The notes: a model not told the origin generated them from the letters alone. Shown: positions 1 through 64,000, numbered from the stretch's first letter. The stretch is 64,000 bases of DNA from Verrucomicrobiota bacterium (GCA_030749225.1 JASMKO010000019.1:140-64139); one strand, 5' to 3'. Numbers and translations: made by a program.

Positions 1-486
1 AAGACGCTCGACTGGACCGCCGAGCAACTGGCCAAGCGCACCGGCCAAGCTAAGCCGGACCTGCCGGTGCAACACCGCACGACCGCCGCCTCCGTACTCT
101 GGCTGCTCAAGGGCGATGCCGGCCAACGCGCGCTCGCCGCGTGGCACATGGGCTGGACACCGGCGCACCAAGCCAGCGGCAGCAATTGGCAGCCGCCGCT
201 GCTTGCCGAGTTGCTCAACGATCCCTACTCTGCCGTCCGCTACGTGGCACACAAGGCCTTGGTTCGCCAGCCGGGGTACGGTGGATTCGAATACGACTTC
301 GTCGCCGCCGAACCCAAGCGTTTGGCCAAGCGGGAGGCCGCCCTGGCAAAGTGGAAGCCACCGACCGCCGACACACCAGAAAACCCTGCCGCCGTGCTGC
401 TGGGCACCAACGGCCAGCTGCTGACCAACCGCGTGCAACGACTTATCGAGACCCGCGACAACCGCCCCATGCGCCTGCGGGAGTGA
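1..486 (+). CDS. hypothetical protein, C-terminal part (ORF open to the window edge)
   Basis: Frame +1 is open from nt 1 (KTLDWTAEQLAKRTG...) to the TGA at 484-486. I recognise no family. DPYSAVRYVAHKAL is only vaguely HEAT-like. Confidence 0.45.
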   Translation, partial: KTLDWTAEQLAKRTGQAKPDLPVQHRTTAASVLWLLKGDAGQRALAAWHMGWTPAHQASGSNWQPPLLAELLNDPYSAVRYVAHKALVRQPGYGGFEYDFVAAEPKRLAKREAALAKWKPPTADTPENPAAVLLGTNGQLLTNRVQRLIETRDNRPMRLRE

Positions 487-569
487 GGGAGTTTTGGATA
501 GCGGCGACCGTGTCTTGATTGATGACTTGCCATTAACTGATTCCGTTTTCATACTGTAAGCCCGCTCCG

Positions 570-1268
570 ATGTTTTTGGCCATGCAGACAAAGGATCGGC
601 GTCGCGCATTTACGCTGATTGAGTTGCTGGTGGTGATCGCCATCATTGCGATTTTGGCCAGCCTGCTGCTGCCGGCGTTGGCTCGGGCCAAGGAGCAGGC
701 GCACCGCACCACCTGCAAGAACAACAGCCACCAATGGCTTCTCTCGTTGACGATGTACGCCGGCAACAACGATGAGGCTTTCCCGCCCGGCGGCTCGAGC
801 AACCCGTACTGGAACTCGGTTTGGTTTCGCGACACGATGACGAACCGGTACCACATCCGCCGTCCGATGTTCTACTGCCCCTCCAACCGGAGCTGGAACC
901 GGGACGATTTCTGGACCTGGCCGGGAGGGCGCGACTCGGTGATGGGCTACTTTTATTTCGCAGGCGAAACGCGCTACTCGAACAACCGGTCAATGTTCCA
1001 GGAGCCGGTGAGCACGCCGGTATTTGCGCTCAAGACCACGGATGACCCTCACTACAAGGTCATCTGGGCCGACTTGAACCGGAAATATAGGGACTCGTGG
1101 GGCAGACCCGGCGATCCGAATCCACTGATGCGAGGCGTCAACCATTACAACGACCGCGGCGATGAGCCGGATGGGGCCAACGAGGGATTTGTTGATGGTC
1201 ACGTGGAGTGGATCCGCGGGGCCACTTTTCGCAAAAAACCGAAAATGATGGGCAATCTCTATTTCTGA
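570..1268 (+). CDS. prepilin-type N-terminal cleavage/methylation domain protein (H-X9-DG / DUF1559-like)
   Basis: N-terminus [27 protein letters not shown] is the pseudopilin class III signal motif. The C-terminal FVDGHVEWI matches the H-X9-DG tail of the large PVC paralog family. An alternative ATG lies at 582. Confidence 0.85.
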
Positions 1269-1539
1269 TCCAAAGCCGCTGTTTTGTCACAAAATAGTCA
1301 CAGTAAAAAAAAGTGCTTGCGGGACAGGAAAAGTGCAGCGATGCTATTCCGCGTCTCACACGGCGTGTGAATGTAAGCGCTGTGGTGGGTATCTACAGTT
1401 ATCTGACATTACATTCTCTGAACTATCCCCGGAGGGGTTGCAGATTTCTTCAATCTGGCCTCTCCGGTTTCATTTTTGAAGCAGTATATTTTTTGCGGGC
1501 CAAAAAAATCGAAGTCTCCTGACATAAATTGCGTATATT

Positions 1540-2583
1540 GTGGCGAATGTGAGTTTCTCCCCGATGATTTACCGAGAGAGTGCAAACTTGTGCATGTCGC
1601 TTGCCTTGGCTTGGACTGCCCCGTATTTGCTTGGGCAGTCCACGGTGAAGTTGGAGTCCTCCGTAGATGGCAACGCCTTCAAACTTTCCACCTGGAACCT
1701 GCCCAAAGGCGGTGTGGCGGTGATCTGGAAAGCGGCCGGAAGCTTGGCCAAGGGTGGCGATTGGTCGGCGGCACACGCGTTTCCCGCCGAAAAACAGGCG
1801 GAAGCGGTTCTCCCCATCCGGCCCGGCAACATTGGCGCGGCGTTCTACCGCTTGTCCTGGCAGGACATCGCCGTACCGCCAAACATGATCTGGATTCCGC
1901 CGGGTGAGTTCAAAATGGGAAGCCCGGAGGATGAAACAGGGCGGTATGCAGACGAAGGCCCAGTGCACGATGTGACCATCCCGCACGGTTTCTGGATGGA
2001 TCGACACGAAGTAACACAGGAGCAATTCGAAAAACTGATGCGATCCAACCCGAGTAGCACTTTCCACACAGCGAACCTGCCAGTGAACCGGATCACCTGG
2101 CAAGAGGCCAACGACTATTGTGAGCGACTGACAAAAGCTGAACAACACAGTGGCACTTTGCCGCTTGGCTTTGTGTACCGGCTGCCAACCGAGGCAGAGT
2201 GGGAATACGCCTGCCGCGCCGGAACCGAGACGGCGTATAGTTACGGCGATTACACCGAGGATCTCAGTCAGCATGGCTGGTGGGCCGGAAATAGCGACGG
2301 CCTCCCGGATCCAGTCGGTAAACTGACCCCCAACCCATGGGGACTGTACGACATTCACGGCAACCTGTTCGAGTGGTGTCTCGACACGTATAAACCTTAC
2401 CCGGGAGGACGGGAGCTAACCTCGAATATACTTCTCAAGGTACTGCGCGGTGGCGCGTATTACTGCCCGGACTTCATTCTACGCTCCGCCTGCCGGGCTG
2501 AGCCGCAGAAACCCGATTACCGATGGATCCTGGCCGGCTTCCGCGTCGTGCTGGCACCCCCGGCTGGCCAAGCGGAAGATTGA
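1540..2583 (+). CDS. formylglycine-generating enzyme (SUMF1/FGE-sulfatase) domain protein, secreted
   Basis: MIWIPPGEFKMGSP, HDVTIPHGFWMDRHEVTQEQF, RLPTEAEWEYACRAG, NPWGLYDIHGNLFEWC and LRGGAY are the canonical FGE-sulfatase domain blocks. The N-terminus is hydrophobic and signal-like. The start is uncertain (GTG 1540, ATG 1564 or ATG 1594). Confidence 0.85.
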   Translation: MANVSFSPMIYRESANLCMSLALAWTAPYLLGQSTVKLESSVDGNAFKLSTWNLPKGGVAVIWKAAGSLAKGGDWSAAHAFPAEKQAEAVLPIRPGNIGAAFYRLSWQDIAVPPNMIWIPPGEFKMGSPEDETGRYADEGPVHDVTIPHGFWMDRHEVTQEQFEKLMRSNPSSTFHTANLPVNRITWQEANDYCERLTKAEQHSGTLPLGFVYRLPTEAEWEYACRAGTETAYSYGDYTEDLSQHGWWAGNSDGLPDPVGKLTPNPWGLYDIHGNLFEWCLDTYKPYPGGRELTSNILLKVLRGGAYYCPDFILRSACRAEPQKPDYRWILAGFRVVLAPPAGQAED

Positions 2584-2600
2584 CCGGCCTGGTTGACGCC

Positions 2601-2624
2601 GCCTGCCCAAGCGCTTGGCCAGGC
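2601..2624. repeat. 24-bp near-perfect palindrome built from the window-wide GCTTGGCC/GGCCAAGC motif, just downstream of the FGE gene
   Basis: gcctgcccaagcgcttggccaggc is self-complementary except for one mismatched pair. There is no T-tract. Confidence 0.5.
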
Positions 2625-2751
2625 GAACCCTTCTGCCTTGGTAAAGAGAGTCTTGACTTCCGCCGTTGAAACCCAATCATCCGCGCCCAACAAGAGGCGA
2701 ACGATCTTTGCCAAGCCGAGAGGGGGAGACAGAATCGACAAGTAGCATATA

Positions 2752-3171
2752 ATGCAGCCTGAATTGCTTTCGAGCGTGAATGATGTACTGCCGCAAGCAG
2801 CCGCGGCCGCCGATCCGTATACAGTCTATCTTATGCTGGCAGTTATGGTGGTGCTCGCTGTTGCTTTCGCTTGCATCCCGCTCATCCTCTCCGCCTTCCT
2901 GGCCCCAAAAAAACCAGGTGAGATCAAGGAATCCACATTCGAGTGCGGGCTAGAATCCAAAGGTGACTCTTGGGTGCAGTTCAAGGTGCAGTACTACCTT
3001 TACGCGCTGGCATTTGTGATCTTCGACATAGAGGTGGTGTTCCTCTACCCTTGGGCGGTGGCCTTCACTGGCCTCTCCTTCGGAGCGTTTCTCGCCATGG
3101 GTATCTTCATTTTGCTTCTGGCCGAGAGCCTAATTTATCTCTGGATCAAAGGCGTGCTGACCTGGAAATGA
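2752..3171 (+). CDS. nuoA: NADH-quinone oxidoreductase subunit A
   Basis: [40 protein letters not shown] is the NuoA/ND3 signature. There are three hydrophobic segments. It is the first gene of the nuo cluster. Confidence 0.9.
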
Positions 3172-3836
3172 CAACCCCAAACACTTCCCCCAGCATTGAA
3201 CTCGACGATACCATCCGAGCGGAATTGGAACGCGCCGGCGTAATCGTGTCGAAGGTAGATTTTCTCTATAACTGGGCTCGCGGGGGTTCGGTATGGCCCT
3301 TGACCTTCGGCCTCGCCTGCTGCGCGATAGAGATGATCGCCTCGGCGACGTCACGATTTGATATTTCGCGATTTGGATCGGAGGTGTTTCGCCCCTCACC
3401 ACGCCAAGCGGATCTCATGATCGTCTCCGGAACAGTAACCAAGAAGATGGCCCCGCAGGTGGTGCGCATTTACAACCAGATGCCGGAGCCAAAATGGGTG
3501 ATCGCCATGGGAGCCTGCGCCATCTCTGGTGGCCCGTTCAAGCAGGGCTACAATGTGCTCAAGGGAATCGACCGTTACATCCCAGTGGATGTGTATTTAC
3601 CCGGTTGCCCTCCGCGACCGGAAGCCGTGTTGCAGTCGCTAAACTATTTGCAGGAGAAAATCCGAACGCAGAATATCAAGTCCGACCCGGCCTTCACCCT
3701 GGGACGCCGCCAATACCCTGTTCCGGAGTTCACCGGAACGGATCTCAAGCCCCCTTACAATCCAGACGTCTGGCAGCCGCCGGTTAACCCCAACGCACCC
3801 GCCGAGGAAGAGACGAAAGAAGAATCAACTGCATGA
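3168..3836 (+). CDS. nuoB: NADH-quinone oxidoreductase subunit B
   Basis: The ATG at 3168 overlaps the nuoA stop (ATGA). [22 protein letters not shown] and LPGCPPRPE are the NuoB/PSST N2 cluster motifs. The ORF-track extension back to 2970 overlaps nuoA and is rejected. Confidence 0.9.
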
Positions 3837-4408
3837 GTGAACCGGTAAGCCACGAGCCTGTTTTGCAACACTTCCCCGACGTGGAGTGGGACGATGCGTT
3901 TGGCACGTTGATCGTTCCGGTGGCGAAGGCCACCGAAGTGGCCACTTGGCTTAGGGACGATGAGGCGTTCCGCCTCGACTACTGCAGCAACGTCACCGGC
4001 ATCGACTACCTTGATCGCGAATTCAAGGAGAAGGTCAAGAACGAGGAAGGCAAAACCGAAACAGTCATTCATACCGATCCCGCTCGGATGGAGGTGGTGT
4101 ACCATCTTTACTCAATGGAAAATCGCACGGGTCCGCTCGTAATGCGGCAGCGCACTAATCGGGAAAAGCCAGAGGCGCAGTCCCTGACCGCCGTCTGGCG
4201 AAGCTGCGAACTGCAGGAGCGGGAGATTTTTGATTTGTACGGCATCCACTTCATAGGCCATCCGGATCAACGGCGTATCCTGATGTGGGATGAATTTGAG
4301 GGGCACCCGATGCGGAAGGATTACGTGGAACCGTTCGACTACGAATGGGAACCCACTCCTCACGATGAAATCCTGGAAAAACACCAAAAAGGAACGGTGA
4401 TTTTCTGA
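3833..4408 (+). CDS. nuoC: NADH-quinone oxidoreductase subunit C
   Basis: [43 protein letters not shown] is the 30-kDa subunit signature. The ATG overlaps the nuoB stop. Confidence 0.9.
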
Positions 4409-4481
4409 TGTTTATCGTTCGAAACACAGAATCGCGTCGCTTGGCTAAGCGAGGATTTGAAACCTTGCCATCTGATTTGGA

Positions 4482-5630
4482 GTGACTGTCGCCGCACCAA
4501 ACTATGAACTTGTTCAACAGGATGGCCTGGAGACCAGCCTGCTGGAAGTCTCGATGGGACCGCATCACCCAAGTACGCACGGCGTGTTCCGAATGGACGT
4601 CAAACTGGACGGCGAAACCGTGGTAGATCTCAAGCCGGTATTTGGTTACCTGCATCGAAACCACGAAAAGCTTGCTGAGAACATGAGTTACCTCGCGAGC
4701 ATGCCGTTCACCGACCGGCTCGATTATTTCAATAGCATGACCAACAACTGGGCGTACGCACTCGCTGCGGAACAGTTGGTCGAGATTGAGATCCCAGAAC
4801 GAGCGGAATATCTACGTGTGATCATGTCGGAACTCACCCGACTGGTAAACCATGTCTCGCTCGTGGGCTTCTTTGTAAACGACCTCGGCGCACTTGGCAC
4901 CCCGTTGCTCTATGCCTTTCGTGAGCGCGAAAAAATCCTCGACCTGTTTGAGCAGGCGAGCGGCGCGCGGATGATGTGCAACTACTTCCGCTTCGGCGGA
5001 CTCCGCTGTGATGTACCCGACGGCTGGCTGGATCGCACCCGCGAAGTGGTCGATCGCTTCCCGAAATTCCTCGATGAATATGAAAAACTGCTCTGCGAAA
5101 ACGAGATCATCCTAAGCCGCACGCAGGGCGTTGGAAATCTTTCAAAAGAACTGGCCATCAGCGCCGGAATTACAGGCCCCATGCTGCGTGCCAGTGGAGT
5201 GAACTACGACATACGCAAGGTGGACAACTACGGCATCTACGAGCGGTTCAAGTTTCGTGTGCCCTACTCGGAAGGAGATGTCGGGGACTGCTACGACCGG
5301 TTCATGGTGCGGATGCTTGAGATGCGGGAAAGCATCGGGATTTTAAGGCAGGCACTGGACGGGATCGAGAATGGCCCGATAATGGGTAATGCCGGAAAGG
5401 TATTTAAGCCTCAGAAGTCGGAGGCCTACGGCCGAGTTGAGGCACCCAAGGGCGAACTTGGCTTTTATCTCGTGGCAGACGGCACAACCCAACCTTACCG
5501 GTATCGGGTGCGGCCGCCTTCATTCATTAACCTGACGGTGCTGCAGGACATGTGCATCGGCCAGCAGGTGGCGGATGCCGTGATCATCCTTGGCAGCATC
5601 GACATCGTTCTCGGCGAGGTGGACCGATGA
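4482..5630 (+). CDS. nuoD: NADH-quinone oxidoreductase subunit D
   Basis: [14 protein letters not shown], the YLHRNHEK-type block and the C-terminal [10 protein letters not shown]...[13 protein letters not shown] are 49-kDa subunit motifs. The GTG start is tentative. Confidence 0.9.
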
Positions 5631-6439
5631 GTGTGCTCGGCAGTGGCATTTTCAAGGGTATGGCGGTAACGCTGAAAAACTTCGTCGGCTCATATTTCGA
5701 CAAGGAACGTCTGACGACCAACGAGTACGCTTGGCAGGCCAATGACAAGTTGCCGGAACGCGCCGGTGACTACCCGAAGGAGGAAGCCGAACAACTTTCC
5801 GACACCACTACGGTCACCCAATACAGCCGCAATTTCCCCATGCTGCTACACGACGCGGGTGAGCCGATGGATACTGTCCGCTGCGTGGCCTGCCAGATTT
5901 GTGAGCGCGAATGCCCGCCACAGTGTATTTACATTGAGAAGAGCACGGAAAAAAAAGAACGGTCCGGGAACAAGGCCCAGTTTTATCCCGCCACGTTCGA
6001 TATCGACGTTTCGGTCTGCATGAGCTGCCAGATTTGCGTGGAGGTCTGCCCGTTTGATGCCATTGTGATGAACAGCCAGTTTGAGTTGAGCACACCGAGT
6101 CGTTTCGGTGAACTATTGCTCCGGCGCGACGACCTGCTCAAGAGCAACGACTACTATTACAAGATTCATCCCGAAGAAGCCTCAGCCCGGGACAAGCGTA
6201 TCGCCGACGAAAAAGCGGCCAAGGAAGCCAAAAAAAAAGCTGCAGAAGCTGCCAAGAAGAAGGCCGCAGAGGCGAAATCAAAGTCTGAAGCCGAAGCCAA
6301 GGCAAAAGAAGAGGCAGAAGCAGCGTCTAAGCCGACCGAACCATCCGACACTCCCCCAGCTGAATCCACAGCAACCCCATCGACTGAACCGCCTGCCACA
6401 CCGACCACTGAACCTGAAAAGGAGGGCAGTGCCGAGTGA
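5627..6439 (+). CDS. nuoI: NADH-quinone oxidoreductase subunit I with a long low-complexity C-terminal tail
   Basis: The ATG at 5627 overlaps the nuoD stop. Two 4Fe-4S ferredoxin motifs are present ([12 protein letters not shown] and [12 protein letters not shown]). The last ~80 aa are a K/A/E-rich then P/T/E-rich tail. Confidence 0.85.
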
Positions 6440-7605
6440 CCCTGGACCTGATCAAAGACATCCTGCTGGCCACGGTCCCATTGTTGATCATCTTCCCGAC
6501 GATGTTCGCTTTGACCACCTGGGTGGAACGCAAGGCACTGGCACGCATCCAAAACCGGATCGGCCCAAACAAGGTTGGCGTGCCTTTGACTCCCTACGGA
6601 GGCAAGCTGAGTTTATTCGGGCTTGGCCAACCGGCAGCTGACGGCATCAAAATGCTTTTCAAGGAGAACATCGTTCCCACCGGCGCAGATCGACTGTTCC
6701 ACTTCCTTGCCCCGATCCTTTCTTTGATCCCCTCAATGCTGGTGCTCTGCTTTTTGCCACTCGACTTTCCATGGCTTAACGGTGAACAAAATTCGGTTAA
6801 AGCATTCATGCTTGATGGTGCGGTGATCTTTTTCTTTGCCATCACAGGGCTCAACACCTTGGCCGTGTTCATGGCTGGCTGGGCCTCTCGAAACAAATAT
6901 TCACTGCTGGGCGGCATGCGTGCCATCGCCCAGATGGTGAGTTACGAAATCCCGCTTGTCCTCTCAGCAGTTGTCGTCGTAATGATCGTGGGCAGCCTGA
7001 ATGCTGACAATATAGCCAAGGCACAGGAAGGCTGGAACTGGTTCGTTTTCCAGCCATGGGGCCTTGCGGCGTTCGTGATTTTTTTTATCGGCGCGCTCGC
7101 GGAGACAAACCGCTCACCATTCGATCTCCCGGAAGCTGAAAGCGAGATCATCGCAGGCTATTTCACAGAATACAGCGGATTCAAGTTCGCCCTGTTTTTC
7201 CTCGGCGAATACATCGCCATGTTTGCGATCAGCGGCCTCGCCGTAACGCTATTTCTCGGGGCAGGTGCCGGCCCGGGTGTGGAGTCTTTGTCTTGGCTTA
7301 AGATCTTCTGGTTTTTGACAAAGGTCTGCATTCTGATCGGGGTAATGATCTGGCTGCGCGGCACCCTTCCCCGGCTTCGTGTCGATCAACTCATGGGCTT
7401 TGCCTGGAAGTTCCTGCTGCCTCTTTCCATCCTGAACATCTTCGTGGCCGGTTTCGCGTGGCACATAAAGGATGCCAATAAAGAAACAGCCACCAGTGTG
7501 GTCGTCTGGATCGCGTCAATCATCATCCTTTACGCAGCAGCCAAGGGGCTGGATCGCGTCAATCGAGCCAAGGTAAAGCCGAGAACGTATCAGTACGGCG
7601 AATGA
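6436..7605 (+). CDS. nuoH: NADH-quinone oxidoreductase subunit H
   Basis: VERKALARIQNRIGPNKVG and ETNRSPFDLPEAESEIIAGYFTEYSG are NuoH/ND1 signatures. The GTG start overlaps the nuoI stop. Confidence 0.9.
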   Translation: MTLDLIKDILLATVPLLIIFPTMFALTTWVERKALARIQNRIGPNKVGVPLTPYGGKLSLFGLGQPAADGIKMLFKENIVPTGADRLFHFLAPILSLIPSMLVLCFLPLDFPWLNGEQNSVKAFMLDGAVIFFFAITGLNTLAVFMAGWASRNKYSLLGGMRAIAQMVSYEIPLVLSAVVVVMIVGSLNADNIAKAQEGWNWFVFQPWGLAAFVIFFIGALAETNRSPFDLPEAESEIIAGYFTEYSGFKFALFFLGEYIAMFAISGLAVTLFLGAGAGPGVESLSWLKIFWFLTKVCILIGVMIWLRGTLPRLRVDQLMGFAWKFLLPLSILNIFVAGFAWHIKDANKETATSVVVWIASIIILYAAAKGLDRVNRAKVKPRTYQYGE

Positions 7606-8138
7606 ACGAAGTGACGGCATTTTGGATGTTGGCGGCGATCTCGGTGCTCGGCGCGCTGATTGCCGTACGCAAGCGCAACCTTGTCCATGGTGTCTTTGCC
7701 CTGCTCGTGTTCTTTGTCGGCTTGGCCGGACTGTTCCTTTTACTGCTCGCGGAGTTCATCGCCGTGGTCCAGATCCTTGTCTACGCCGGAGCAGTGGGCA
7801 TCCTGATTTTGTTTGCCATCATGCTGACCGATCGCGTCACGGGAAGGGACGCATTCCGGGTCACATCAAGGGGAAGTTTTTGGGGGGCACTGATTTCATT
7901 GGCCGTTTTTCTGGTGATCCTACTTCCAACCATTCAAGACATCCCCACGATTGAAAACCCGACACCCAAGGAAACGATCGTAGAAACATCAACTGTAAAG
8001 CAACTGGGCATCCACCTCATCAAGCCCTACATCATCACCATTGAAATCTTGGCATTGTTACTGACTGCCGCTCTGGTCGGTGCAGTAACGGCAGCCCAAG
8101 GCGGCCGTGCATCTGAAAATGAGGAAAACAACAAATGA
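7602..8138 (+). CDS. nuoJ: NADH-quinone oxidoreductase subunit J
   Basis: The call rests on position between nuoH and nuoK, a 178-aa polytopic membrane protein, and the ND6-like block AVVQILVYAGAVGILILFAIML. Confidence 0.8.
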   Translation: MNEVTAFWMLAAISVLGALIAVRKRNLVHGVFALLVFFVGLAGLFLLLLAEFIAVVQILVYAGAVGILILFAIMLTDRVTGRDAFRVTSRGSFWGALISLAVFLVILLPTIQDIPTIENPTPKETIVETSTVKQLGIHLIKPYIITIEILALLLTAALVGAVTAAQGGRASENEENNK

Positions 8139-8449
8139 CCCTTGCGCTCCACCATTGCTTGATCCTTGCAGCGGTCCTGTTTTGCATTGGGTTGCTTGGT
8201 GCTTTTTCACGGCGCAACGCCATCGTGGTTTTGTTCTCGGTCGAGATCATGCTCAATGCGGCCAATCTGAATTTCATCGCCTTCTGGCGTTACGGCACAA
8301 ACCCGGAGTTACTTCACGGCCCGCTATTTACCCTTTTCACTATTGCCGTAGCGGCGGCTGAGGTCGCGGTCGGGCTTGCTCTCGTCATTGCCGTTTACAG
8401 GCACTTTCGATCGGTTGACCTGGAATCACTCGACACACTTAAGGAGTAA
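8135..8449 (+). CDS. nuoK: NADH-quinone oxidoreductase subunit K
   Basis: The protein is 104 aa with 3 TM segments. SVEIMLNAANLNFIAF and AAAEVAVGLALV match NuoK/ND4L. Confidence 0.85.
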   Translation: MTLALHHCLILAAVLFCIGLLGAFSRRNAIVVLFSVEIMLNAANLNFIAFWRYGTNPELLHGPLFTLFTIAVAAAEVAVGLALVIAVYRHFRSVDLESLDTLKE

Positions 8450-10374
8450 TGACCACAACCACCCTCGCATTGATTCCGTTGCTGCCGCTCCTTGCGGCTG
8501 CTGTGACTTCATTGATGCGCGACGGCAAGCGTGCGTCAATTGTCGCTATCGCGGCACTGCTGGGTTCCTGCCTACTCTCCCTTATCGCTTTCAACGAAGC
8601 CTGGGCAATGGCTGCGAACGATGCCCCAAAATTGTTCAACGTCCCTTGGCTGGAACTCGGGAAAACAAAGATCAACTTCGGCTTTGTTCTCAATCCCCTG
8701 ACAGGAGCGATGGCCGCAATGGTTACGTTCGTCGGATCGCTCATTTTCATCTACTCGGCCGGCTACATGGCACAGGACAAACGGATGGCCCGTTTCTTCT
8801 GTTACCTGTCGCTGTTCGCCTCGGGGATGCTTGGAGTGGTATTGGCCAACAGCCTGATCCTTTTTTTCATGTGTTGGGAGATTGTCGGCGTAGCTTCCTA
8901 TCTACTCATCAGTTTTTGGAACCACAAACCAGAAGCCGCAGCGGCAGGCAAAAAGGCATTCATCGTCACACGTATTGGCGATATTGGTTTCCTGATCGGA
9001 ATTCTGTTGGCCTTCAAGGTCTCTGGTACGCTTGATTTTTACACGAAAGGCGGAACCGGGATTCTTGAACAGAATCTTACCTCTCACATGGCTTTTGGAT
9101 ATCAGGCCGCAACGGTGATCAGCTTTCTGTTATTCATAGGTGCCGTGGGCAAGTCAGGGCAGTTGCCGCTTCATGTCTGGCTGCCGGACGCAATGGAAGG
9201 CCCGACCCCTGTAAGCGCACTCATCCACGCCGCCACCATGGTTGCCGCCGGCGTCTTTTTGGTAGCCCGCACGTATCAGCTTTTCGATGACGGAGGAACA
9301 CTACCACTTGTCACATGGGTGGGCGCCATAACGGCACTGGTCGCGGCGTTCATCGCGCTTGGCCAATACGACCTCAAACGAATCCTCGCCTACTCCACCG
9401 TCAGCCAGCTTGGCCTAATGATGGTAGGCATTGGCGTCGCCGGCGTTTCGGTGGGCATGTTTCACCTGTTGACCCACGCCTTTTTCAAGGCGCTGCTTTT
9501 CCTTGGTGCCGGTTCGATAATCCATGGCTGCCACGAGGAACAGGACATTCGAAAAATGGGCGGCTTGGCCAAGCCAATGCCGTTCACCACAATCGCCTAT
9601 CTCTGTGGCACAGCAGCCTTAGTGGCGTTCCCATTTACGAGCGGATTTTTCAGTAAAGACGAAATCCTGATGGGAGCCTGGGCAAACGATCGCGGTGCCT
9701 TTTGGATTGCCACCCTCGCCTCACTGCTGACAGCGCTCTACATGACGCGCCAATGCATGTACGTGTTCCGCGGTACTCACCGTGGTGAACATGCCCCGCA
9801 CGAAAGCCCACCAATCATGACGGTGCCTCTGTTGATCCTATCGGTATTTGCGCTTGGCCTCGGCGCCTTGGTCAAAAACAGCCTGATGGAACATCTGCAC
9901 CCATTCAAAAACCCACCCACCGAACACGAGATGATCGTCATCGTCATTAGCGTCCTCGTCGCGCTTGGCGGAATCGTGCTTGGATTCATGATTTATCGTG
10001 GGCAGGTGCTTGGCCAAGCGGCAGACCCGCTGGCGCTCAAGCCCTTCGAGCGCAAGTTTTGGTTTGATGAGATTTACGAGGCCACTGTCGGCCAGCTTTG
10101 GACGCTGTTCATTATCATCAGTGAACAACTCAATGAACTTTTGGTTTTCATTCGCGATCTCGCCGTGGAACTTGCATCCCGTATTGGCAATGGCTTCTCC
10201 ATCGGAGGTGACCGAAAGTTAATCGACTCTCTAGCGTTCGATGGCATGTGCGCTCGCCTCCGCTGCGCAGGCCGAACCGTCACCCGGCCTCAAAATGGAT
10301 TTCTTCCCGGTTACCTCCGATTGATTGCTCTCGGCACGGTACTGCTTGGGGCACTGGTACTCTGGACTCGATGA
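8449..10374 (+). CDS. nuoL: NADH-quinone oxidoreductase subunit L (641 aa, extended lateral-helix region)
   Basis: GKSGQLPLHVWLPDAMEGPTPVSALIHAATMVAAGVFL and SQLGLMM are ND5/NuoL signatures. The C-terminal FDEIY...QNGFLPGY segment is unusually long (see findings). Confidence 0.9.
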   Translation: MTTTTLALIPLLPLLAAAVTSLMRDGKRASIVAIAALLGSCLLSLIAFNEAWAMAANDAPKLFNVPWLELGKTKINFGFVLNPLTGAMAAMVTFVGSLIFIYSAGYMAQDKRMARFFCYLSLFASGMLGVVLANSLILFFMCWEIVGVASYLLISFWNHKPEAAAAGKKAFIVTRIGDIGFLIGILLAFKVSGTLDFYTKGGTGILEQNLTSHMAFGYQAATVISFLLFIGAVGKSGQLPLHVWLPDAMEGPTPVSALIHAATMVAAGVFLVARTYQLFDDGGTLPLVTWVGAITALVAAFIALGQYDLKRILAYSTVSQLGLMMVGIGVAGVSVGMFHLLTHAFFKALLFLGAGSIIHGCHEEQDIRKMGGLAKPMPFTTIAYLCGTAALVAFPFTSGFFSKDEILMGAWANDRGAFWIATLASLLTALYMTRQCMYVFRGTHRGEHAPHESPPIMTVPLLILSVFALGLGALVKNSLMEHLHPFKNPPTEHEMIVIVISVLVALGGIVLGFMIYRGQVLGQAADPLALKPFERKFWFDEIYEATVGQLWTLFIIISEQLNELLVFIRDLAVELASRIGNGFSIGGDRKLIDSLAFDGMCARLRCAGRTVTRPQNGFLPGYLRLIALGTVLLGALVLWTR

Positions 10375-11816: not shown

Positions 11817-11817
11817 C

Positions 11818-13308: not shown

Positions 13309-13317
13309 CCTGACTGT

Positions 13318-19513: not shown

Positions 19514-24085
<4,572 letters not shown>

Positions 24086-38497: not shown

Positions 38498-38498
38498 G

Positions 38499-42166: not shown

Positions 42167-42180
42167 CGCTTGGCCAAGCG
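42167..42180. repeat. complete 14-bp form of the hyper-abundant palindrome (CGCTTGGCCAAGCG) in a divergent intergenic region
   Basis: This is an exact self-complementary 14-mer. It lies about 45 nt upstream of the 42122 start and about 110 nt upstream of the 42289 start. Confidence 0.8.
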
Positions 42181-52700: not shown

Positions 52701-53497
52701 AGCTCATCAATGTGCGACCGCATCTCCCTCGGGCCAAGCGCACAGTTGATCCCGACGCTGACTAGGTCGATGTTCGACACCGAGTTCCAGTACGCCTCGA
52801 CCGTCTGTCCAGAGAGCGTGCGCCCGCTCTGGTCGGTGATGGTGAAGGACAGCATCACCGGCAGCCGTTGGCCAAGCGAGTCGAACAACAACTCGAGCGC
52901 GAACAATGCCGCCCGCGAGTTGAGTGAGTCGAACACCGTCTCGACCAGCAGCAAATCCACCCCACCCTCCACCAAGCCTTTGGCCTGCTCCGTGTACGCG
53001 TCGACCAGTTGGTCATACGTCACCGCACGGAATGCCGGATCATTGACATCCGGCGAGATGGAGGCCGTGCGATTCGTCGGACCAAGCGCCCCGGCGACGA
53101 AACATTGCCGGCCTGGAACCGCCGTCATCACTTCATCGGCGGCGGATCGGGCAAGCCTCGCGTTGGCCGCATTCAACTCATGCGCCAGCGACTCCATCCC
53201 GTAATCGGCCAGTGCGATACTCGTCGAGTTGAATGTGTTCGTCTCAACGATGTCTGCCCCGGCTTCAAGATAGGTCCGGTGGATCGAGCCAATCACCTCC
53301 GGCCGCGTGATACCCAGAAGGTCGTTGTTTCCCTTCAAGTCACGATCCCAGTCTGCAAATCGTTCACCCCGAAAATCAGCCTCCTCCATTCTGTGCTGCT
53401 GGATCATCGTGCCCATCGCGCCATCGAGAATCACGATGCGCTTGGCCAAGAGATCAATCAGGGCATGATGCCTGTTACTGGACGATTTACAGCCCAC
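49796..53497 (-). CDS. metH: cobalamin-dependent methionine synthase
   Basis: The protein is 1233 aa. Domains run in order: Hcy-binding ([25 protein letters not shown]), pterin-binding, B12-binding ([12 protein letters not shown]) and AdoMet activation. The GTG start at 53497 is tentative. Confidence 0.95.
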
Positions 53498-55531: not shown

Positions 55532-55990
55532 CTATCGCAACGCGATCTCGATGGGCATCAGTCGGAGGGTGAAGTCGAGAGCACTTTCGAGTTCGCTGCC
55601 CAGCGATTCGAGTTGCCGCTGATACGGGGCGTTAACCATATCGTTTAGCACACGATCGGAAATCAGGCTGGCCATCTGCCCGTCGCTGTTGGCCACCATG
55701 ACGATCCACTCCGACACTTTTTGCGGGGCGCCGGCAACCACCGGCTCGGAAACCGGGGCCGGCTTGAGGGCCAAAGCCAGCGCGATGACGCCCAAGCCGC
55801 CGGCGAACACCCAGCGCCACGCCTTGGCCAAGCCGTGCGTTGAGCGGGCCTGTTTTTCGGCCTCGGCATGGACGGCGGCCATGATGCGCCGGTGGAGGAA
55901 CGGCGGAAAATCCGGCGCATCCCGCCTGGCCCCATCGACGAGGCGGGCCTCGATGCTTGGCCAAGTGCTTGGTTGTTGTTCGTCTTTCAT
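55532..55990 (-). CDS. putative anti-sigma factor (single-pass membrane protein)
   Basis: It lies immediately downstream of the ECF sigma gene. A short cytoplasmic N-domain is followed by one TM segment (AWRWVFAGGLGVIALALAL) and an extracytoplasmic tail. The ATG at 55990 is preferred over the TTG at 56017. Confidence 0.55.
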   Translation of the reverse strand: MKDEQQPSTWPSIEARLVDGARRDAPDFPPFLHRRIMAAVHAEAEKQARSTHGLAKAWRWVFAGGLGVIALALALKPAPVSEPVVAGAPQKVSEWIVMVANSDGQMASLISDRVLNDMVNAPYQRQLESLGSELESALDFTLRLMPIEIALR

Positions 55991-56013
55991 GGTTCGATTC
56001 GCTTGGTTATTAG

Positions 56014-56631
56014 TCAAAATCCGGTTCCTGTCGGCAATTCCTCTGCGAGTTTTCGGCGGGCGCGGTGCAGCAGCACTTTCACAGAGCCGACACTCTTATT
56101 CATTACGTCCGCGGTTTCGGCCAGGTTTCGCTCTTCGCCGTAAAAATGCCACAACGCGTTGAACTGGCTTTCAGGGAGAGACTTTCGGGCCTGGCCCCAG
56201 ATGCCCCTGGCCTTCTCGCTGGCCATCAAGTTGCTCCGTGGATTTTCGTCGACAGCCCAGTCTGCGTTCTCCGCCTCAACCGGTTGCCTGCGGCGGAAGT
56301 GGTTGATGGCCAGGCGCGAGGCGATGGTGTAAATCCAGGTCGTGAAGGCGTATTTCGGGTTGTAGCGGTGTAACTTGCGATAGGCCGTGACGAAGGTGGA
56401 TTGCAGCAAATCCTGGGCGAGATGATGGTTTCCGGTCTTCCGGAAAAGGAAGGCGAACAACCGACCCTCGAGCCGGGTCACCAGTTGCTCGAACGAATCG
56501 ATGCAGCCCCCTTTCGCAGCAATGGCCAAGGCGAGTTCCTCCTCCCGCTCCGAGTCCCGCTCCGTGTTATCGCGAGTCGGGGCAATGACACAGCTTGAAT
56601 CAGCTTGGCCCTGGGGTGGAGCCGCCATCAT
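56014..56631 (-). CDS. ECF-type RNA polymerase sigma-70 family factor
   Basis: Region 2 is FEQLVTRLEGRLFAFLFRKTGNHHLAQDLLQSTFVTAYRKLHRYNPKYAFTTWIYTIASRLAINHFRR. Region 4 is LPESQFNALWHFYGEERNLAETADVMNKSVGSVKVLLHRARRKL. The start is either ATG 56631 or TTG 56655. Confidence 0.85.
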   Translation of the reverse strand: MMAAPPQGQADSSCVIAPTRDNTERDSEREEELALAIAAKGGCIDSFEQLVTRLEGRLFAFLFRKTGNHHLAQDLLQSTFVTAYRKLHRYNPKYAFTTWIYTIASRLAINHFRRRQPVEAENADWAVDENPRSNLMASEKARGIWGQARKSLPESQFNALWHFYGEERNLAETADVMNKSVGSVKVLLHRARRKLAEELPTGTGF

Positions 56632-58401: not shown

Positions 58402-58545
58402 GTCGGTTGACTCTGTGGAAAACCCACCCGAAGGGAAACAAAAAAACGGCGCATGGCCAAGCGACCGGTTTTGTCGTTTGACAGCCAAGCCGGATTCAGG
58501 CTTGCTCCCGCCTGCGCTTGGCCAAGCCAAGGCCACTTTTCTTCC

Positions 58546-59139
58546 ATGGCAAACGACCCCGAACAACTCTCCCGCATCGAGGCGTACTTGAGTGAAAACC
58601 TGTCCCCTGCCCGCTTCAAGCACGTTTTGGGCGTGCGGGAAACGGCGGTGGCCTTGGCCAATCGCCACGGCATCGACGCCGACCAAGCCGAGCTGGCAGC
58701 CCTGCTGCACGACTGCACAAAGGAGCGCCTCGACAACGAATTGGTCGCCTTGGCCAAGCACAACGGCCTGCCAGTGGACGAATATGAGAAACAGACGCCG
58801 GGCCTGCTGCATGGCAAGGTGGCCCCGTTCGTGGCCACCGAGCAGTTCGGGGTGACCGACGAGGTGGTGTGCGATGCCATGCGGTGTCACTCCACCGGCG
58901 CGGTGAAAATGGGGCCGCTGGATCAACTGCTGTTCGTCGCCGATTTCTGCGAACCGAACCGGCCGTACACGGCGGCGCAGGAGGTGCGCGAGCTGGCCGA
59001 GCGCGACCTAGAGGCCGCCGTGCTCGAGGTGATGCAGTTCAAACTCCGCAAAACCCTGCTAAAAAAACAGCCGGTGCACCCCGACTCCTTCCACGCCTAC
59101 AACGCCCTGCTCAACAAACGAAATCGTGAGACTGTGTGA
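58546..59139 (+). CDS. yqeK: HD-domain hydrolase, YqeK-like bis(5'-nucleosyl)-tetraphosphatase
   Basis: RFKHVLGVRETAVALA, AELAALLHDCTKE, LLHGKVAPFV, MRCHSTG and LLFVADFCEPNR are present. The ATG at 58546 is preferred. Confidence 0.7.
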   Translation: MANDPEQLSRIEAYLSENLSPARFKHVLGVRETAVALANRHGIDADQAELAALLHDCTKERLDNELVALAKHNGLPVDEYEKQTPGLLHGKVAPFVATEQFGVTDEVVCDAMRCHSTGAVKMGPLDQLLFVADFCEPNRPYTAAQEVRELAERDLEAAVLEVMQFKLRKTLLKKQPVHPDSFHAYNALLNKRNRETV

Positions 59140-60502: not shown

Positions 60503-60610
60503 AAACGGCGGCGAAGAGTTACTTGCATCCTCCTCGCCGCCTCGGGGAAACGTAGTCTGAGCAAACTATCGCTCCCCTTGTTCCTCCCGAACCAAGACCA
60601 ATAAAAGACA

Positions 60611-60643
60611 CCCTTGGCCAAGCGATGGTCGCTTGGCCAAGGG
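60611..60643 (-). terminator. perfect 15-bp-arm hairpin made of two inverted copies of the abundant motif; probable amtB terminator
   Basis: The hairpin is cccttggccaagcga-tgg-tcgcttggccaaggg. On the minus strand it lies 10 nt after the amtB stop and is followed by TGTCTTTTATT. It sits between convergent genes. Confidence 0.6.
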
Positions 60644-60652
60644 CACAAATGT

Positions 60653-62020
60653 TTACGAACTGTAACCGGACTCCCCGTGACTGTTCAGATCAAGACCCTG
60701 ATCCTCCTCGTCGTCACTGACGCGACAACCGCCAGTCAGCAAGCCAGCGATCTTGAAGGCAATCACCGAAACAACCCCGCTCCAGATAATCGTGACCACG
60801 ATACCTTTTAACTGTGCAAATACTTGAGCACCCATGCTATCAAGTGCCATCCCGGATCCACCAAAGGTCTCTGCTGCACAAACACCGGTTAATAGAGCGC
60901 CCACAATTCCTCCTATACCATGCACACCGAATACATCTAAACTATCATCATAGCCCAGTGCTTTTTTCATTGAAGTCGCACAGAAATAGCAAACAACTCC
61001 AGCGGCAAGTCCGATGATGAGCGCTCCAATAGGTCCTGCCGAACCGGAAGCAGGCGTTATAGCGACCAACCCAGCAACAGCACCCGTAGCAATACCTACA
61101 GCAGTTGGCTTCCCGGTTTTAATCCATTCTACTATCATCCAACTGAATGCCGCAGTGGCCGTGGCGACTTGTGTTACCAGTAGGGCCATACCGGCCGTAC
61201 CATCGGCCGCGAGCTCACTACCAGCATTAAAACCAAACCAGCCAACCCAAAGCATACTGGCTCCAACCACTGTCAAAGGCACACTGTGTGGTGGTATTGC
61301 AGTTGATCCGTAGCCTTTTCGTTTACCAAGCATGATGCAGGTCACCAAACCCGCAATTCCTGCGTTAATATGAACGACTGTACCACCGGCAAAATCCATT
61401 GCATCCCAACCTGAAATCAATCCACCACCCCAGACCATATGCCAAACCGGTACGTAAGAGAACGTAAACCATAGTGCGCAAAAAATTAGAACTGAACTAA
61501 ATTTCATCCGCTCTGCAAAAGCCCCCACAATAAGTGCTGGAGTGATAATAGCGAAAGTCATTTGAAAGGTAAAAAAGACCGATTCCGGAATACTTCCATC
61601 AATCGTGTCAACACCAACTCCTTTCAAAAATAATTTACTAAAATCGCCAATGAATGCGTTGCCTTCTCCATAAGCCAAAGTGTAGCCGTAAATTAGCCAT
61701 AAGATGGTCATCAGGCAGGTGATTGCAAAGCACTGCACAAGGATCGACAGAATATTCTTGGCGCGAACCAATCCCCCATAGAACAGGGACAAGCCAGGGA
61801 TGGTCATGAACAGCACTAAAACTGTCGCCACAATCATCCAGGCGGTATCTCCTGAATTTAGTGTTGCTGCTTCTTCAGCCGCAGCAGGAGCGGCCTCAGC
61901 AGGAGCGGCCTCAGCGGCTGCTTCCTGGGCCATCAGTGATTCAACCGGCAACAATGTTACCGCCATTACGAAAAGCACACTCGCTAGTGTGCCAAATAAG
62001 GTTTTTTTCTTCATGCTCAT
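60653..62020 (-). CDS. amtB: ammonium transporter
   Basis: There is a signal peptide and 11 TM segments. DFAGGTVVHINAGIAGL, GFNAGS and DVFGVHGIGGIVGALLTG are Amt/MEP signatures. Confidence 0.92.
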   Translation of the reverse strand: MSMKKKTLFGTLASVLFVMAVTLLPVESLMAQEAAAEAAPAEAAPAAAEEAATLNSGDTAWMIVATVLVLFMTIPGLSLFYGGLVRAKNILSILVQCFAITCLMTILWLIYGYTLAYGEGNAFIGDFSKLFLKGVGVDTIDGSIPESVFFTFQMTFAIITPALIVGAFAERMKFSSVLIFCALWFTFSYVPVWHMVWGGGLISGWDAMDFAGGTVVHINAGIAGLVTCIMLGKRKGYGSTAIPPHSVPLTVVGASMLWVGWFGFNAGSELAADGTAGMALLVTQVATATAAFSWMIVEWIKTGKPTAVGIATGAVAGLVAITPASGSAGPIGALIIGLAAGVVCYFCATSMKKALGYDDSLDVFGVHGIGGIVGALLTGVCAAETFGGSGMALDSMGAQVFAQLKGIVVTIIWSGVVSVIAFKIAGLLTGGCRVSDDEEDQGLDLNSHGESGYSS

Positions 62021-62387: not shown

Positions 62388-62786
62388 CTATTTGCCAGCC
62401 CAGTAGTCCACCACGAACACGTCCTCCACCACCGGCCCAACTAACTCGACGAATTTCTTGTGGGCCGGGTGCACGAGGTAGATGTCGCGATCTTTTTCCG
62501 ACCCGAACGTGATCAGGTAGCAGTGTTTGAACCCCTTGTTCAACCCCTCGGGACTGTTGTTCGTCCCTTTCTCAAACGCCTTGATTTCAGTGATTTTCTT
62601 TTCCAGCGCGGCAAACGCCTTCTCTACCTCGGCGATCTTTGCCATGGTCGCCTCATCCTTATACTTGAAACAGACGAAGTGCCGGAGTTGCTTCACCTGC
62701 TTTTTGTCCGCGGCCTCAGTGGTCATGCCCGCGTACAGCACCCCCAGCCCGACAGCCAGGCCTAACAGTCGTAAAATGTTTTTCAT
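62388..62786 (-). CDS. Dabb (stress-responsive alpha/beta barrel) domain protein with signal peptide
   Basis: LRHFVCFKYKDEAT...AFEKGTNNSPEGLNKGFKHCYLITFGSEKDRDIYLVHPAHKKFVE is the typical Dabb layout. Confidence 0.75.
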   Translation of the reverse strand: MKNILRLLGLAVGLGVLYAGMTTEAADKKQVKQLRHFVCFKYKDEATMAKIAEVEKAFAALEKKITEIKAFEKGTNNSPEGLNKGFKHCYLITFGSEKDRDIYLVHPAHKKFVELVGPVVEDVFVVDYWAGK

Positions 62787-62851
62787 GATTCAAAATTGAA
62801 CAAACACCAGACTCCCAAAGCCCACAAATCAAATCAAGGTTAGATTATCAA

Positions 62852-63907
62852 TTGGCAATTCTGTACTGGACATTCTTACTCCATGCCTTGAAAACTCGCC
62901 GCGTGAGAGTTCTGCTTGCTTTTAATTTACTGGGCTCGGTCATGTTTTTCAACAGCGCCGTGGCTGCCGATGATTCCATCAAGCCTTTCCTGGCGATTTT
63001 TGGTAAACCCTTAAAAGCGGCCAAGATGCCCGAAAAGGCCGAGGAACGTGCCAGAGTCGAACTTGGACGCACCCTCTACCACGAAAAACGTCTCAGCCGC
63101 GACAACTCCATTTCCTGCAACTCCTGCCACGACACAGTAGGCTTTGGAGTGGATGGAAAGAAATTCTCGCTGGGCTTTAATGGTCATCTTACCGGACGCA
63201 ATTCCCCCACCAGTTTCAACGCGTTCATGCATGTGGCCCAGTTTTGGGATGGCCGCGCGCCAACCGTCGAGGAACAGGCCAAGGGCCCCATTCTTGCCGG
63301 AGGTGAAATGGCCATGCCTTCCGCCGATGCAGTCGTGAAGAAACTGAACAAGATTGACGGATACAAGGCACTGTTCGAGGCAGCCTTCCCTAAAAGCGAT
63401 CCGCCCATCACATACGACAATGTCGGCAAGGCCATCGGCGCCTACGAGCGACTGTTCGTTACACCAGGACCGCTGGACCGACTCCTCAGGGGCAGGGACA
63501 ATGCTTTGTCTGAAGTCGAAAAGCGGGGGCTGCAAAAGTTTGTCACCACCGGTTGTGTTTCCTGCCATACAGGCAATCTACTGGGCGGCATCTCCTACCA
63601 GAAACTTGGCGTCGTCAAACCGTGGCCAAATCAAAAGGACCAGGGCCGGTACGACCTCACAAAAAATGAGGCCGAGAAGATGTTTTTCAAGGTACCCAGC
63701 CTACGAAACATTGCCAAAACTGCGCCCTACTTCCATGACGGCTCAGGTACAACGTTGAAACAGGCCGTTCAGATGATGGCCACCCATCAACTTGGCCGGG
63801 AATTGTCGAATGAGGATGTTTCGGACATTGTTGCCTTCCTGAACTCACTCACGGGCAAATTAAACTCCGCCATTGCGGCCCCACCGAAAAGCTTCCCCGG
63901 CAGATAA
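62852..63907 (+). CDS. di-heme cytochrome c peroxidase (CCP/MauG family)
   Basis: Two heme motifs are present (CNSCHD and CVSCHTG), plus FWDGRA, the PSLRNIAKTAPYFHDGS block and LNSLTG. The start is uncertain: TTG 62852, or GTG 62903 which gives a cleaner signal peptide. Confidence 0.9.
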   Translation: MAILYWTFLLHALKTRRVRVLLAFNLLGSVMFFNSAVAADDSIKPFLAIFGKPLKAAKMPEKAEERARVELGRTLYHEKRLSRDNSISCNSCHDTVGFGVDGKKFSLGFNGHLTGRNSPTSFNAFMHVAQFWDGRAPTVEEQAKGPILAGGEMAMPSADAVVKKLNKIDGYKALFEAAFPKSDPPITYDNVGKAIGAYERLFVTPGPLDRLLRGRDNALSEVEKRGLQKFVTTGCVSCHTGNLLGGISYQKLGVVKPWPNQKDQGRYDLTKNEAEKMFFKVPSLRNIAKTAPYFHDGSGTTLKQAVQMMATHQLGRELSNEDVSDIVAFLNSLTGKLNSAIAAPPKSFPGR

Positions 63908-64000
63908 GAGCGAGGAATCCTGACTATGCCTTAGGGCCAGGCCCACAGCACAAAACAGGGCTTGAAAATCGAGCCAAGAACCGTCAACCTGACTGCCCTT

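Follow-up and report, generated by a model that had tools for sequence, protein, structure and literature searches.

HIP1, the highly iterated palindrome of cyanobacteria, reportedly goes back to work by Robinson in 1995. The word, GCGATCGC, occurs at 300–2700 copies per Mb in cyanobacteria (PMC4390886, PMC5861425), with observed-to-expected ratios (O/E) of 55–228 in most HIP1-rich cyanobacteria (PMC4390886, Table 2); it co-occurs there with orphan CGATCG and GATC methyltransferases (PMC4390886) and shows a periodicity of 10–90 kb (PMC5861425), and Synechococcus PCC 6312 is noted to have a GGCC-centred palindrome of the same kind, CAGGCCTG (PMC4390886, PMC5861425). Recent studies favour a methylation-dependent part for HIP1 in natural transformation: methylated HIP1 raises transformation more than 100-fold outside any restriction-modification system (bioRxiv 10.1101/2024.09.10.611283), and HIP1 abundance tracks the DNA-uptake machinery (bioRxiv 10.64898/2026.06.24.733823). 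Highly iterated palindromes have so far been essentially cyanobacterial, with their function disputed between a repair signal, a nucleoid organiser and an uptake tag. Iterated words are also found as the DNA uptake sequences (DUS) of Neisseria and the uptake signal sequences (USS) of Pasteurellaceae, which alter proteomes (PMC2817400). The present analysis concerns the self-complementary octamer TTGGCCAA in a 64,000-nucleotide stretch of DNA from a Verrucomicrobiota bacterium (GCA_030749225.1 JASMKO010000019.1:140-64139, hereafter the window) and in related genomes. The octamer is identified as a highly iterated palindrome, an HIP1- and uptake-sequence-like genomic tag that represents a new word in a new phylum; the initial annotation of the window had drawn the same comparison, which is apt in abundance, dispersal, conservation and clade specificity.

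Analysis of the window reveals 41 exact copies of TTGGCCAA, corresponding to 640 per Mb. An earlier count of 40 was nearly complete, with 39 of its starts exact, one misplaced (26299 for 26309) and the copy at 13906 overlooked. The GC content of the window is 57.1%, rather than the 60% previously assumed; the estimated 40- to 50-fold excess nevertheless stands, because the zero-order expectation at the real composition is 0.89 copies, giving an O/E of 46. Stricter null models reduce the ratio and leave a clear excess: 100 dinucleotide shuffles yield a mean of 1.9 copies and a maximum of 7 (O/E 21), and an order-2 Markov model predicts 4.1. Within coding sequences (CDS), 36 copies are present against 4.6 ± 2.0 (maximum 12) in 500 synonymous-codon shuffles, which permute synonymous codons within each gene while keeping its protein sequence and codon usage; the excess (O/E approximately 8) thus persists under a protein- and codon-preserving null, a kind of comparison that the initial annotation had asked for. 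Among palindromic octamers of the window, TTGGCCAA ranks first by far, followed by CGCCGGCG with 7 copies, and the ten commonest octamers of any type are overlapping parts of one longer word. As a palindrome of about 8 nt with an O/E of at least 15 and hundreds of copies per Mb, the word falls within the hyper-abundance range that defines highly iterated palindromes, and in motif-rich loci of related genomes its O/E is 22–126. Full-text literature searches returned no description of TTGGCCAA, of its extended form CTTGGCCAAG or of a Verrucomicrobia palindrome, only primers and unrelated papers; most subscription journals lay outside their scope, so that this absence is not proof.

The phylogenetic range of the word was delineated by two surveys, one of NuoL-centred loci from species-representative genomes and one a MetH-centred metagenome scan (loci are numbered with the prefix L). 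The motif-bearing clade consists of marine Verrucomicrobiota, represented by metagenome-assembled genomes (MAGs) of Pedosphaerales/Limisphaerales type. Ten NuoL loci (L002, L004, L005, L011, L014, L016, L020, L022, L023 and L024) carry 3–10.5 copies per 10 kb, and TTGGCCAA leads the palindromic octamers in each of the ten (jointly in L005). Their NuoL identity to the window is approximately 70–85%, with L024 (72%) still motif-rich at the cut-off; relatives at or below approximately 72% identity and all Acidobacteriota matches are at background level, except for L024 and the partial case L006. In the metagenome scan, nine MetH contigs with at least 85% identity carry 4–16 copies per 10 kb (two are near-duplicates, leaving 8 distinct), and none of the MetH contigs with at most 71% identity is motif-rich. 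Pooled clade DNA (300 kb) contains 237 copies against 18.7 expected from an order-3 model, and pooled outgroup DNA (308 kb) contains 29 against 12. Overall, at least ten species-level MAGs share the word, and the clade density is approximately 0.3–1.6 copies per kb, reaching about 1600 per Mb in L085. Motif-rich MAGs include NYYJ01 (ARS81), JACNJE01 (NIOZ-UU28), DBNL01 (UBA673), CALJHX01 and DKGH01, and JASLKL01 (ETNP1_MAG_3) and JAYZHR01 (XB_MAG217) are motif-poor sisters. The word is not an assembly artefact, because the MAGs stem from many independent studies and assemblers.

Three close relatives of low GC content (42–45%; L001, L003 and L086) carry just 0.9–2.5 copies per 10 kb and keep L-A-K "fossil" peptides written in AT-richer codons. 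The simplest reading is that the word was ancestrally present in these sisters and later decayed. Across clade loci L001–L024 and L081–L097, density increases as GC content rises (Spearman 0.78, p = 2e-5, no phylogenetic correction), despite the word being 50% GC and its zero-order expectation flat; both may go back to one factor, for example recombination rate or GC-biased gene conversion.

A candidate phage or prophage of the motif clade appears to share the word of its host. This phage-like contig, L229 (positions 1–13670; IMGVR_UViG_3300032087_002358), encodes a terminase large subunit, DnaB, a DnaD-like loader, an exonuclease and RusA, with no recognisable methyltransferase, and contains 8 copies of TTGGCCAA in 13.7 kb against 0.23 expected; the word is therefore not a restriction target purged by phages. 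Scanning of viral contigs with the 14-mer form of the word returned mostly single chance matches, and a pair-of-10-mers pattern returned 12 contigs, none of them motif-rich, which leaves L229 as the one convincing case in these scans.

The 10-mer palindrome CTTGGCCAAG with soft palindromic flanks is a more fitting description of the functional unit. This 10-mer is the top-scoring unit, with 27 copies in the window against approximately 0.2 expected (order 2); 22 of these lie in CDS, where the synonymous shuffle predicts 1.1. In a symmetrised logo of 232 pooled clade sites, C at −1 and G at +1 occur in 79%, G at −2 and C at −3 in 56% each, and position −4 is C or G in 82%, with zero flank information past about −5/+5. 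The resulting consensus is (s)cgCTTGGCCAAGcg(s), with weaker palindromic flanks out to approximately 14–16 bp, and the extensions keep the palindrome at every position, as in highly iterated palindromes. Of the pooled sites, 65% (150/232) carry the 10-mer, 27% the 12-mer and 14% the 14-mer. In the window itself, the full 14-mer, CGCTTGGCCAAGCG, occurs once and is confirmed at 42167–42180, where the initial annotation had placed it; the tail-to-tail junction form at 50405–50420 and the one-mismatch relative CTGGCCAAGCG at 28, 2564 and 29893 are likewise as reported, and a CGC/GCG flank on at least one side is present at a lower fraction (24/41, 59%) than the claimed two thirds. Words within two mismatches of the 10-mer are also in excess, at 135 against 37 ± 6 expected.

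The copies are isolated, duplex-symmetric words of 8–14 bp, written by point substitution. They were considered as parts of miniature inverted-repeat transposable elements (MITEs) or repetitive extragenic palindromic (REP) sequences, and this origin is rejected, because nothing is shared among copies beyond a few flanking bases: conservation stops approximately 4 nt to either side of the octamer, and new copies come about through base substitutions at orthologous positions, without indels. REP sequences, bacterial interspersed mosaic elements and MITEs are similarly abundant palindromes, in some cases with hairpins close to the ends of genes; those elements, however, are 20–150 bp long, intergenic and transposed, whereas the words here are 88% genic and made by substitution, with unconserved flanks.

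Within genes, the word is an attractor to whose spelling Leu-Ala-Lys, Leu-Gly-Gln and Trp-Pro-Ser are drawn, and adjacent amino acids are changed to create it. Specifically, Leu-Ala-Lys is spelled TTGGCCAAG in 19 of its 31 occurrences in the window (61%), against 1.7 expected from codon usage, and Leu-Gly-Gln is spelled CTTGGCCAA in 7 of 15, against 0.44. The compatible tripeptides are themselves over-represented three- to sixfold relative to amino-acid composition (L-A-K 31 against 9.4, L-G-Q 15 against 5.5, W-P-S 5 against 0.8). Over the same aligned protein segments, clade members have an L-A-K O/E of 3.7, the low-GC sisters 1.9 and outgroups 0.6, with 92 occurrences in the window and 15 in outgroups. 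Relative to composition, L-A-K is thus about six times commoner than in outgroup orthologs, a clear demonstration that constraint on the protein can give way to a word in the DNA. At window position 9565, outgroups carry GTGTGGAAA (V-W-K) and the clade carries TTGGCCAAG (L-A-K), a multi-base, amino-acid-changing conversion; at 10010, L-G-E or L-G-V in outgroups corresponds to L-G-Q in the clade, and at 13624 L-A-A corresponds to L-A-K. Given these other residues at orthologous sites and the clade-only excess of L-A-K, a DNA-level force strong enough to alter proteins must be at work. The initial annotation had proposed that the process acts on DNA and not on a peptide, and had quoted peptide contexts that are correct (PLAKRD at 13624, VLGQAA at 10010 and RAWPSV at 24847, the last in a glycerate kinase by Pfam); the proposal is strongly supported, as outgroup orthologs differ in codons or amino acids and the same peptide spelled otherwise is not conserved.

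Comparison of orthologous positions reveals strong retention of the word. Clade orthologs carry the identical word at a window motif site in 97 of 161 comparisons (60%), against 18% for other aligned 8-mers; the same comparison in 22 outgroup loci (clade locus L097 left out) gives 6 of 123 (approximately 5%) against approximately 7% for controls. Given identical amino acids, the motif spelling is kept in 85% against 37% in frame 0 and in 77% against 25% in frame 1. Moreover, L-A-K/N spelled as the motif is kept in 85% of same-peptide orthologs, against 9% when spelled otherwise, and among the cases spelled otherwise the ortholog carries the motif in 50%. Four or more clade taxa are represented in 49 orthologous columns; the word is a singleton in 14 of these, is present in at least 60% of taxa in another 14 and is shared by all taxa in none; minority taxa without the word are usually one substitution away, mostly by a transition. 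Gains are substitutions without indels, for example CTGGCCAAG to TTGGCCAAG at 1744. Collectively, these dynamics describe an equilibrium of gain and loss with strong retention.

The copies are dispersed across the window, whose gene map was verified with Pfam. Thirty-six (88%) lie in genes, on either strand, and five are non-coding or at gene boundaries; densities are similar, at 0.62 per kb in coding and 0.91 per kb in non-coding DNA. The coding copies are read as L-A-K/N in 23 cases (64%), as x-G-Q in 9 and as W-P-S in 4. The possibility of one frame encoding one repeated peptide, raised with the first description, does not apply, as three frames and non-coding DNA are used. The host genes are housekeeping genes, including the nuo operon, pntAB, gltBD, glycerate kinase, metH and an aminotransferase gene; a subtilase, a peroxiredoxin, a thioredoxin, two giant DUF7133 proteins and an ammonium transporter are also encoded. 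Individual copies are listed below with window coordinates, where octamer denotes TTGGCCAA, 10-mer denotes CTTGGCCAAG and ORF denotes an open reading frame.

322–329, octamer, L-A-K, partial ORF 1–486; common to L002 and L022
1744–1751, 10-mer, L-A-K, FGE-sulfatase-like gene 1540–2583; relatives carry CTGGCCAAG, a lineage-specific C>T gain
6623–6630, octamer, L-G-Q, nuoH 6436–7605
8842–8849, octamer, L-A-N, nuoL
9359–9366, octamer, L-G-Q, nuoL; widespread in the clade
9565–9572, 10-mer, L-A-K, nuoL; V/I-W-K in outgroups
10010–10017, 10-mer, L-G-Q, nuoL; L-G-E or L-G-V in outgroups
13624–13631, 10-mer, L-A-K, last antiporter-like nuo gene 13318–14811; L-A-A in outgroups
13906–13913, octamer, L-A-N; window lineage only, the copy missed in the first count
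15745–15752, octamer, L-A-N, pntB (minus strand)
16000–16007, octamer, L-A-K, pntB
20106–20113, octamer, L-A-K, gltB
20292–20299, 10-mer, L-A-K, gltB; common to L002, L003 and L004
24714–24721, 10-mer, L-A-K, glycerate kinase gene
24847–24854, 10-mer, W-P-S, glycerate kinase gene
26309–26316, octamer, V-G-Q, VCA0040-like gene; the copy first placed at 26299
26962–26969, 10-mer, L-A-K, AhpC/TSA gene
27949–27956, 10-mer, non-coding, 11 nt past the 3' end of the RNase P RNA (27561–27938)
34207–34214, 10-mer, W-P-S, DUF7133 giant gene 33560–38497
34530–34537, octamer, L-A-K, DUF7133 giant gene 33560–38497
34961–34968, 10-mer, L-G-Q, DUF7133 giant gene 33560–38497
37728–37735, 10-mer, L-A-K, DUF7133 giant gene 33560–38497
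39547–39554, 10-mer, L-A-K, DUF7133 giant gene 38499–42161
41220–41227, 10-mer, L-G-Q, DUF7133 giant gene 38499–42161
42167–42180, the only full 14-mer, 5' boundary or divergent intergenic region between 38499–42161 (minus strand) and 42289 (plus strand)
45582–45589, octamer, F-G-Q, aminotransferase gene
46059–46066, 10-mer, L-G-Q, aminotransferase gene
46408–46415, octamer, W-P-S, subtilase gene
47778–47785, 10-mer, L-A-K, subtilase gene
50403–50420, 10-mer with overlapping half-word (GGCCAAGCGCTTGGCC), L-A-K, metH
51807–51814, 10-mer, L-A-K, metH
52473–52480, 10-mer, L-A-K, metH
52868–52875, octamer, L-G-Q, metH
53442–53449, 10-mer, L-A-K, metH
55824–55831, 10-mer, L-A-K, ORF 55532–56017
55957–55964, 10-mer, W-P-S, ORF 55532–56017
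58518–58525, 10-mer, at the 5' end of or upstream of a Rieske-domain gene, at the boundary with an HD-domain gene
58654–58661, octamer, L-A-N, HD-domain gene
58750–58757, 10-mer, L-A-K, HD-domain gene
60608–60646, two 10-mers (60614 and 60633) that pair as the arms of an 18-bp stem around a 3-nt loop, with T-rich CTTTTATT next to it

The paired copies at 60608–60646 (minus strand) fold into a hairpin with a free energy of −31.9 kcal/mol (z −6.3), 7 nt past the stop codon of the ammonium-transporter gene (60653–62020). By its sequence, this element resembles an intrinsic terminator made of the word itself and recalls the paired DUS/USS. Folding of the copies at 42170, 27949 and 58518 is no better than that of shuffles, and a general terminator role is doubtful, with only one convincing hairpin found. 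Spacing is not regular, and the 133-bp gaps that occur twice in the window did not generalise.

Set against the described systems, the word shares with HIP1 a palindromic octamer core with a palindrome-keeping extension to at least 10 nt, an abundance of hundreds to more than 1000 copies per Mb (O/E 22–126 here against 55–228 for HIP1), occurrence as isolated words in coding and non-coding DNA and in all frames, conservation of orthologous sites above background with loss in some reduced or low-GC lineages, and the presence of Type II recognition sites. Unlike HIP1, it is an unrelated word without GATC or CGATCG, belongs to Verrucomicrobiota and not to Cyanobacteria, shows no bias against central-position one-off variants and strongly and measurably remodels tripeptide content. 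With DUS and USS it shares clade specificity and a density of approximately one copy per kb (PMC1939737, PMC2817400, PMC1626085), placement in genes in all frames with a preference for those encoding tolerable peptides, a reshaped proteome, an enrichment of one-off variants in the manner of a gradual "molecular drive", and perhaps the capacity of paired copies to form terminators, with one terminator-like case here. A Chi-type hotspot is rejected, since TTGGCCAA is its own reverse complement and is unable to carry a Chi-like polarity. An unrelated word thus shows the same behaviour in another phylum, and the phenomenon is therefore convergent and general.

By analogy with these systems, the word may be a "self/kin DNA" tag, a reading that is held tentatively and with somewhat less than even confidence. 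In this proposal, a sequence-specific protein with two-fold symmetry, particular to the lineage, would recognise the word in duplex DNA during DNA uptake and/or homologous recombination, comparable to methylated HIP1 or DUS/USS. Incoming or recombining fragments that bear the word would be favoured, and its copies would multiply through molecular drive, in the form of biased transformation or gene conversion, combined with purifying retention. A symmetric reader is suggested because all extensions keep the palindrome; a loss-prone, lineage-specific factor, because enrichment is clade-limited and eroded in the 42–45% GC sisters with their peptide "fossils"; and gradual drive, because words with at most two mismatches are in excess and one-off variants are mildly enriched. 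Loss of the reader in the low-GC, streamlined sisters would leave the word to decay there. An orphan methyltransferase acting on the TGGCCA/YGGCCR/GGCC core would be a likely component, although none was seen. The broader proposition, that CTTGGCCAAG is an uptake, recombination or kin-discrimination tag in abundant marine Verrucomicrobiota, and a convergent instance of the HIP1/DUS principle in the Planctomycetes–Verrucomicrobia–Chlamydiae (PVC) superphylum, is possible and more doubtful.

Several observations weigh against the tag proposal. The conservation data alone do not tell functional selection apart from a biased process that keeps regenerating the word. In contrast to DUS and USS, which are asymmetric 9–12-mers, TTGGCCAA is perfectly palindromic; even spacing is reported for USS, whereas 217 gaps between copies have a coefficient of variation of 1.08 against 1.04 ± 0.07 for random placement, a Poisson-like pattern with no regularity. 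DUS and USS come with a competence receptor and an uptake bias, and the present clade is uncultured. The Pfam scan of the window genes identified no reader protein, methyltransferase or competence-specific gene. A pseudopilin gene (prepilin-type N-methyl/DUF1559) and a PilC-like T2SSF platform gene are present at 570–1268 and 28861–29871; these type IV pilus/type II secretion genes might form part of a machinery for DNA uptake, but such genes are common in the phylum, and the two are mutually unlinked here. In addition, L229 is the sole phage case, with its host assigned from the motif itself only, and the terminator-like hairpin stands alone, with long ORFs enclosing the 15 further close pairs of the clade loci.

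The strongest rival to the tag proposal, although unlikely, is a methylation-directed repair signal as in Elhai's model of HIP, in which an orphan methyltransferase would mark the TGGCCA/GGCC core and the word would serve as a strand or nicking signal for mismatch repair, accumulating by a one-way ratchet. The core of TTGGCCAA does include the Type II recognition sites TGGCCA, YGGCCR and GGCC, and the word is palindromic, genome-wide, frame-independent and clade-limited, with enriched one-off variants. The co-occurrence of HIP1 with orphan CGATCG and GATC methyltransferases (PMC4390886) points in the same direction. Neither the 64-kb window nor the phage contig encodes a methyltransferase, however, and the Pfam scan places no restriction enzyme, nuclease or Vsr gene near the motif in the window. 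The HIP1-type avoidance of central-position variants is also missing, their O/E of 1.4–2.0 resembling that of the outer positions. Furthermore, even spacing would be expected and a Poisson-like distribution is observed, and the ratchet would have to be very strong to force amino-acid replacements.

A role as the binding site of an abundant nucleoid-associated or chromosome-organising dimer on a palindrome of about 14 bp, as proposed for HIP1 by Xu, Lawrence and Durand, is judged decidedly improbable. The graded palindromic logo of 14–16 bp is typical of dimeric DNA-binding proteins, and the sites are conserved between species and unrelated to gene starts, frames and orientation. Against this stand thousands of copies per genome, as extrapolated from the window density, together with a remodelled proteome; such copy number and remodelling lie far beyond the known palindromic organiser sites parS, matS, NBS and SBS. 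A phage carrying the word at host density would also be left unexplained. The 10–90 kb periodicity of HIP1 in cyanobacteria (PMC5861425) favours an organising role, whereas short-range spacing here is random, in a 64-kb window too short for periodicity on that scale.

Very-short-patch (VSP) repair would make the word a functionless by-product, generated passively as a Vsr-like nickase and a 5-methylcytosine (m5C) methyltransferase fix T:G mismatches; this is very unlikely. GGCC, which the core contains, is a common m5C target, and the Vsr/Dcm system of E. coli (CCWGG) similarly is a context-specific, DNA-level process that shifts word frequencies regardless of coding. VSP repair distorts E. 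coli word frequencies only modestly, however, and the 46- to 370-fold excess found here is well above such a distortion. The diagnostic signature of the Vsr-like link suggested by the initial annotation, depletion of the C>T neighbours, is missing: the deamination neighbour TTGGTCAA/TTGACCAA has an O/E of 2.0 in the 300 kb of clade DNA, where none of the one-mismatch neighbours of TTGGCCAA shows a VSP-repair pattern. The C>T gain at position 1 (CTGGCCAAG to TTGGCCAAG) runs in the wrong direction for Vsr, and the multi-base, amino-acid-changing conversion of GTGTGGAAA to TTGGCCAAG also speaks against it.

A peptide, codon-pair or mobile-repeat (MITE/REP) artefact has a negligible probability, for although 64% of coding copies lie in the L-A-K/N frame and GCC and AAG are major codons, the peptide/codon explanation is refuted by the synonymous shuffle, by the use of two other frames and non-coding DNA and by a clade-specific peptide excess that follows the DNA word, and the copies have no conserved flanks and arise without indels.

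Among the remaining one-mismatch neighbours in clade DNA, TTCGCCAA/TTGGCGAA is the only depleted one (O/E 0.48 against 1.25 in outgroups) and TTAGCCAA/TTGGCTAA the most enriched (O/E 4.2), both with small counts. The runner-up palindrome CGCCGGCG is the second commonest palindromic octamer in the window and in L004, L005 and L022, with 7–10 copies each.

Motif-rich and motif-poor sisters at approximately 80% protein identity offer a cleaner natural experiment. Should the tag proposal hold, gene presence and absence within the clade could reveal the reader and writer proteins, and the 30-year-old question of the role of highly iterated palindromes would become testable outside cyanobacteria. 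In addition, the word is a strong taxon-specific marker that could aid binning, the assignment of phages such as L229 to hosts and the spotting of recently acquired genes.

Several motif-free genes of the window have an unusually low GC content at third codon positions (GC3). These lie at 30425–33472 and 60653–62020 and comprise a TonB-dependent receptor (0.42), an ammonium transporter (0.44) and an ankyrin-repeat protein (0.56), against approximately 0.7 elsewhere. Recent acquisition is a possible reason, as is a different constraint on these genes. The motif-free gap of 6.3 kb at 27949–34207 spans the first of these groups.

Other features of the window include the nuo operon (2752–14811), ordered A-B-C-D-I-H-J-K-L and followed by three Proton_antipo_M paralogs; without nuoE, nuoF and nuoG, it corresponds to an 11/12-subunit NDH-1-like arrangement. 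The RNase P RNA (27561–27938, plus strand) is of bacterial class A and matches at full length with 221.6 bits, and the overlying ORFs (27502–28092, minus strand, and 28033–28482, plus strand) have no Pfam matches and are probably not genes. On the minus strand at 33560–42161, two tandem giant paralogs of 1645 and 1220 amino acids have an N-terminus of ceramidase-like type together with DUF7133 and HEAT repeats, to which the second paralog adds a cytochrome c domain.

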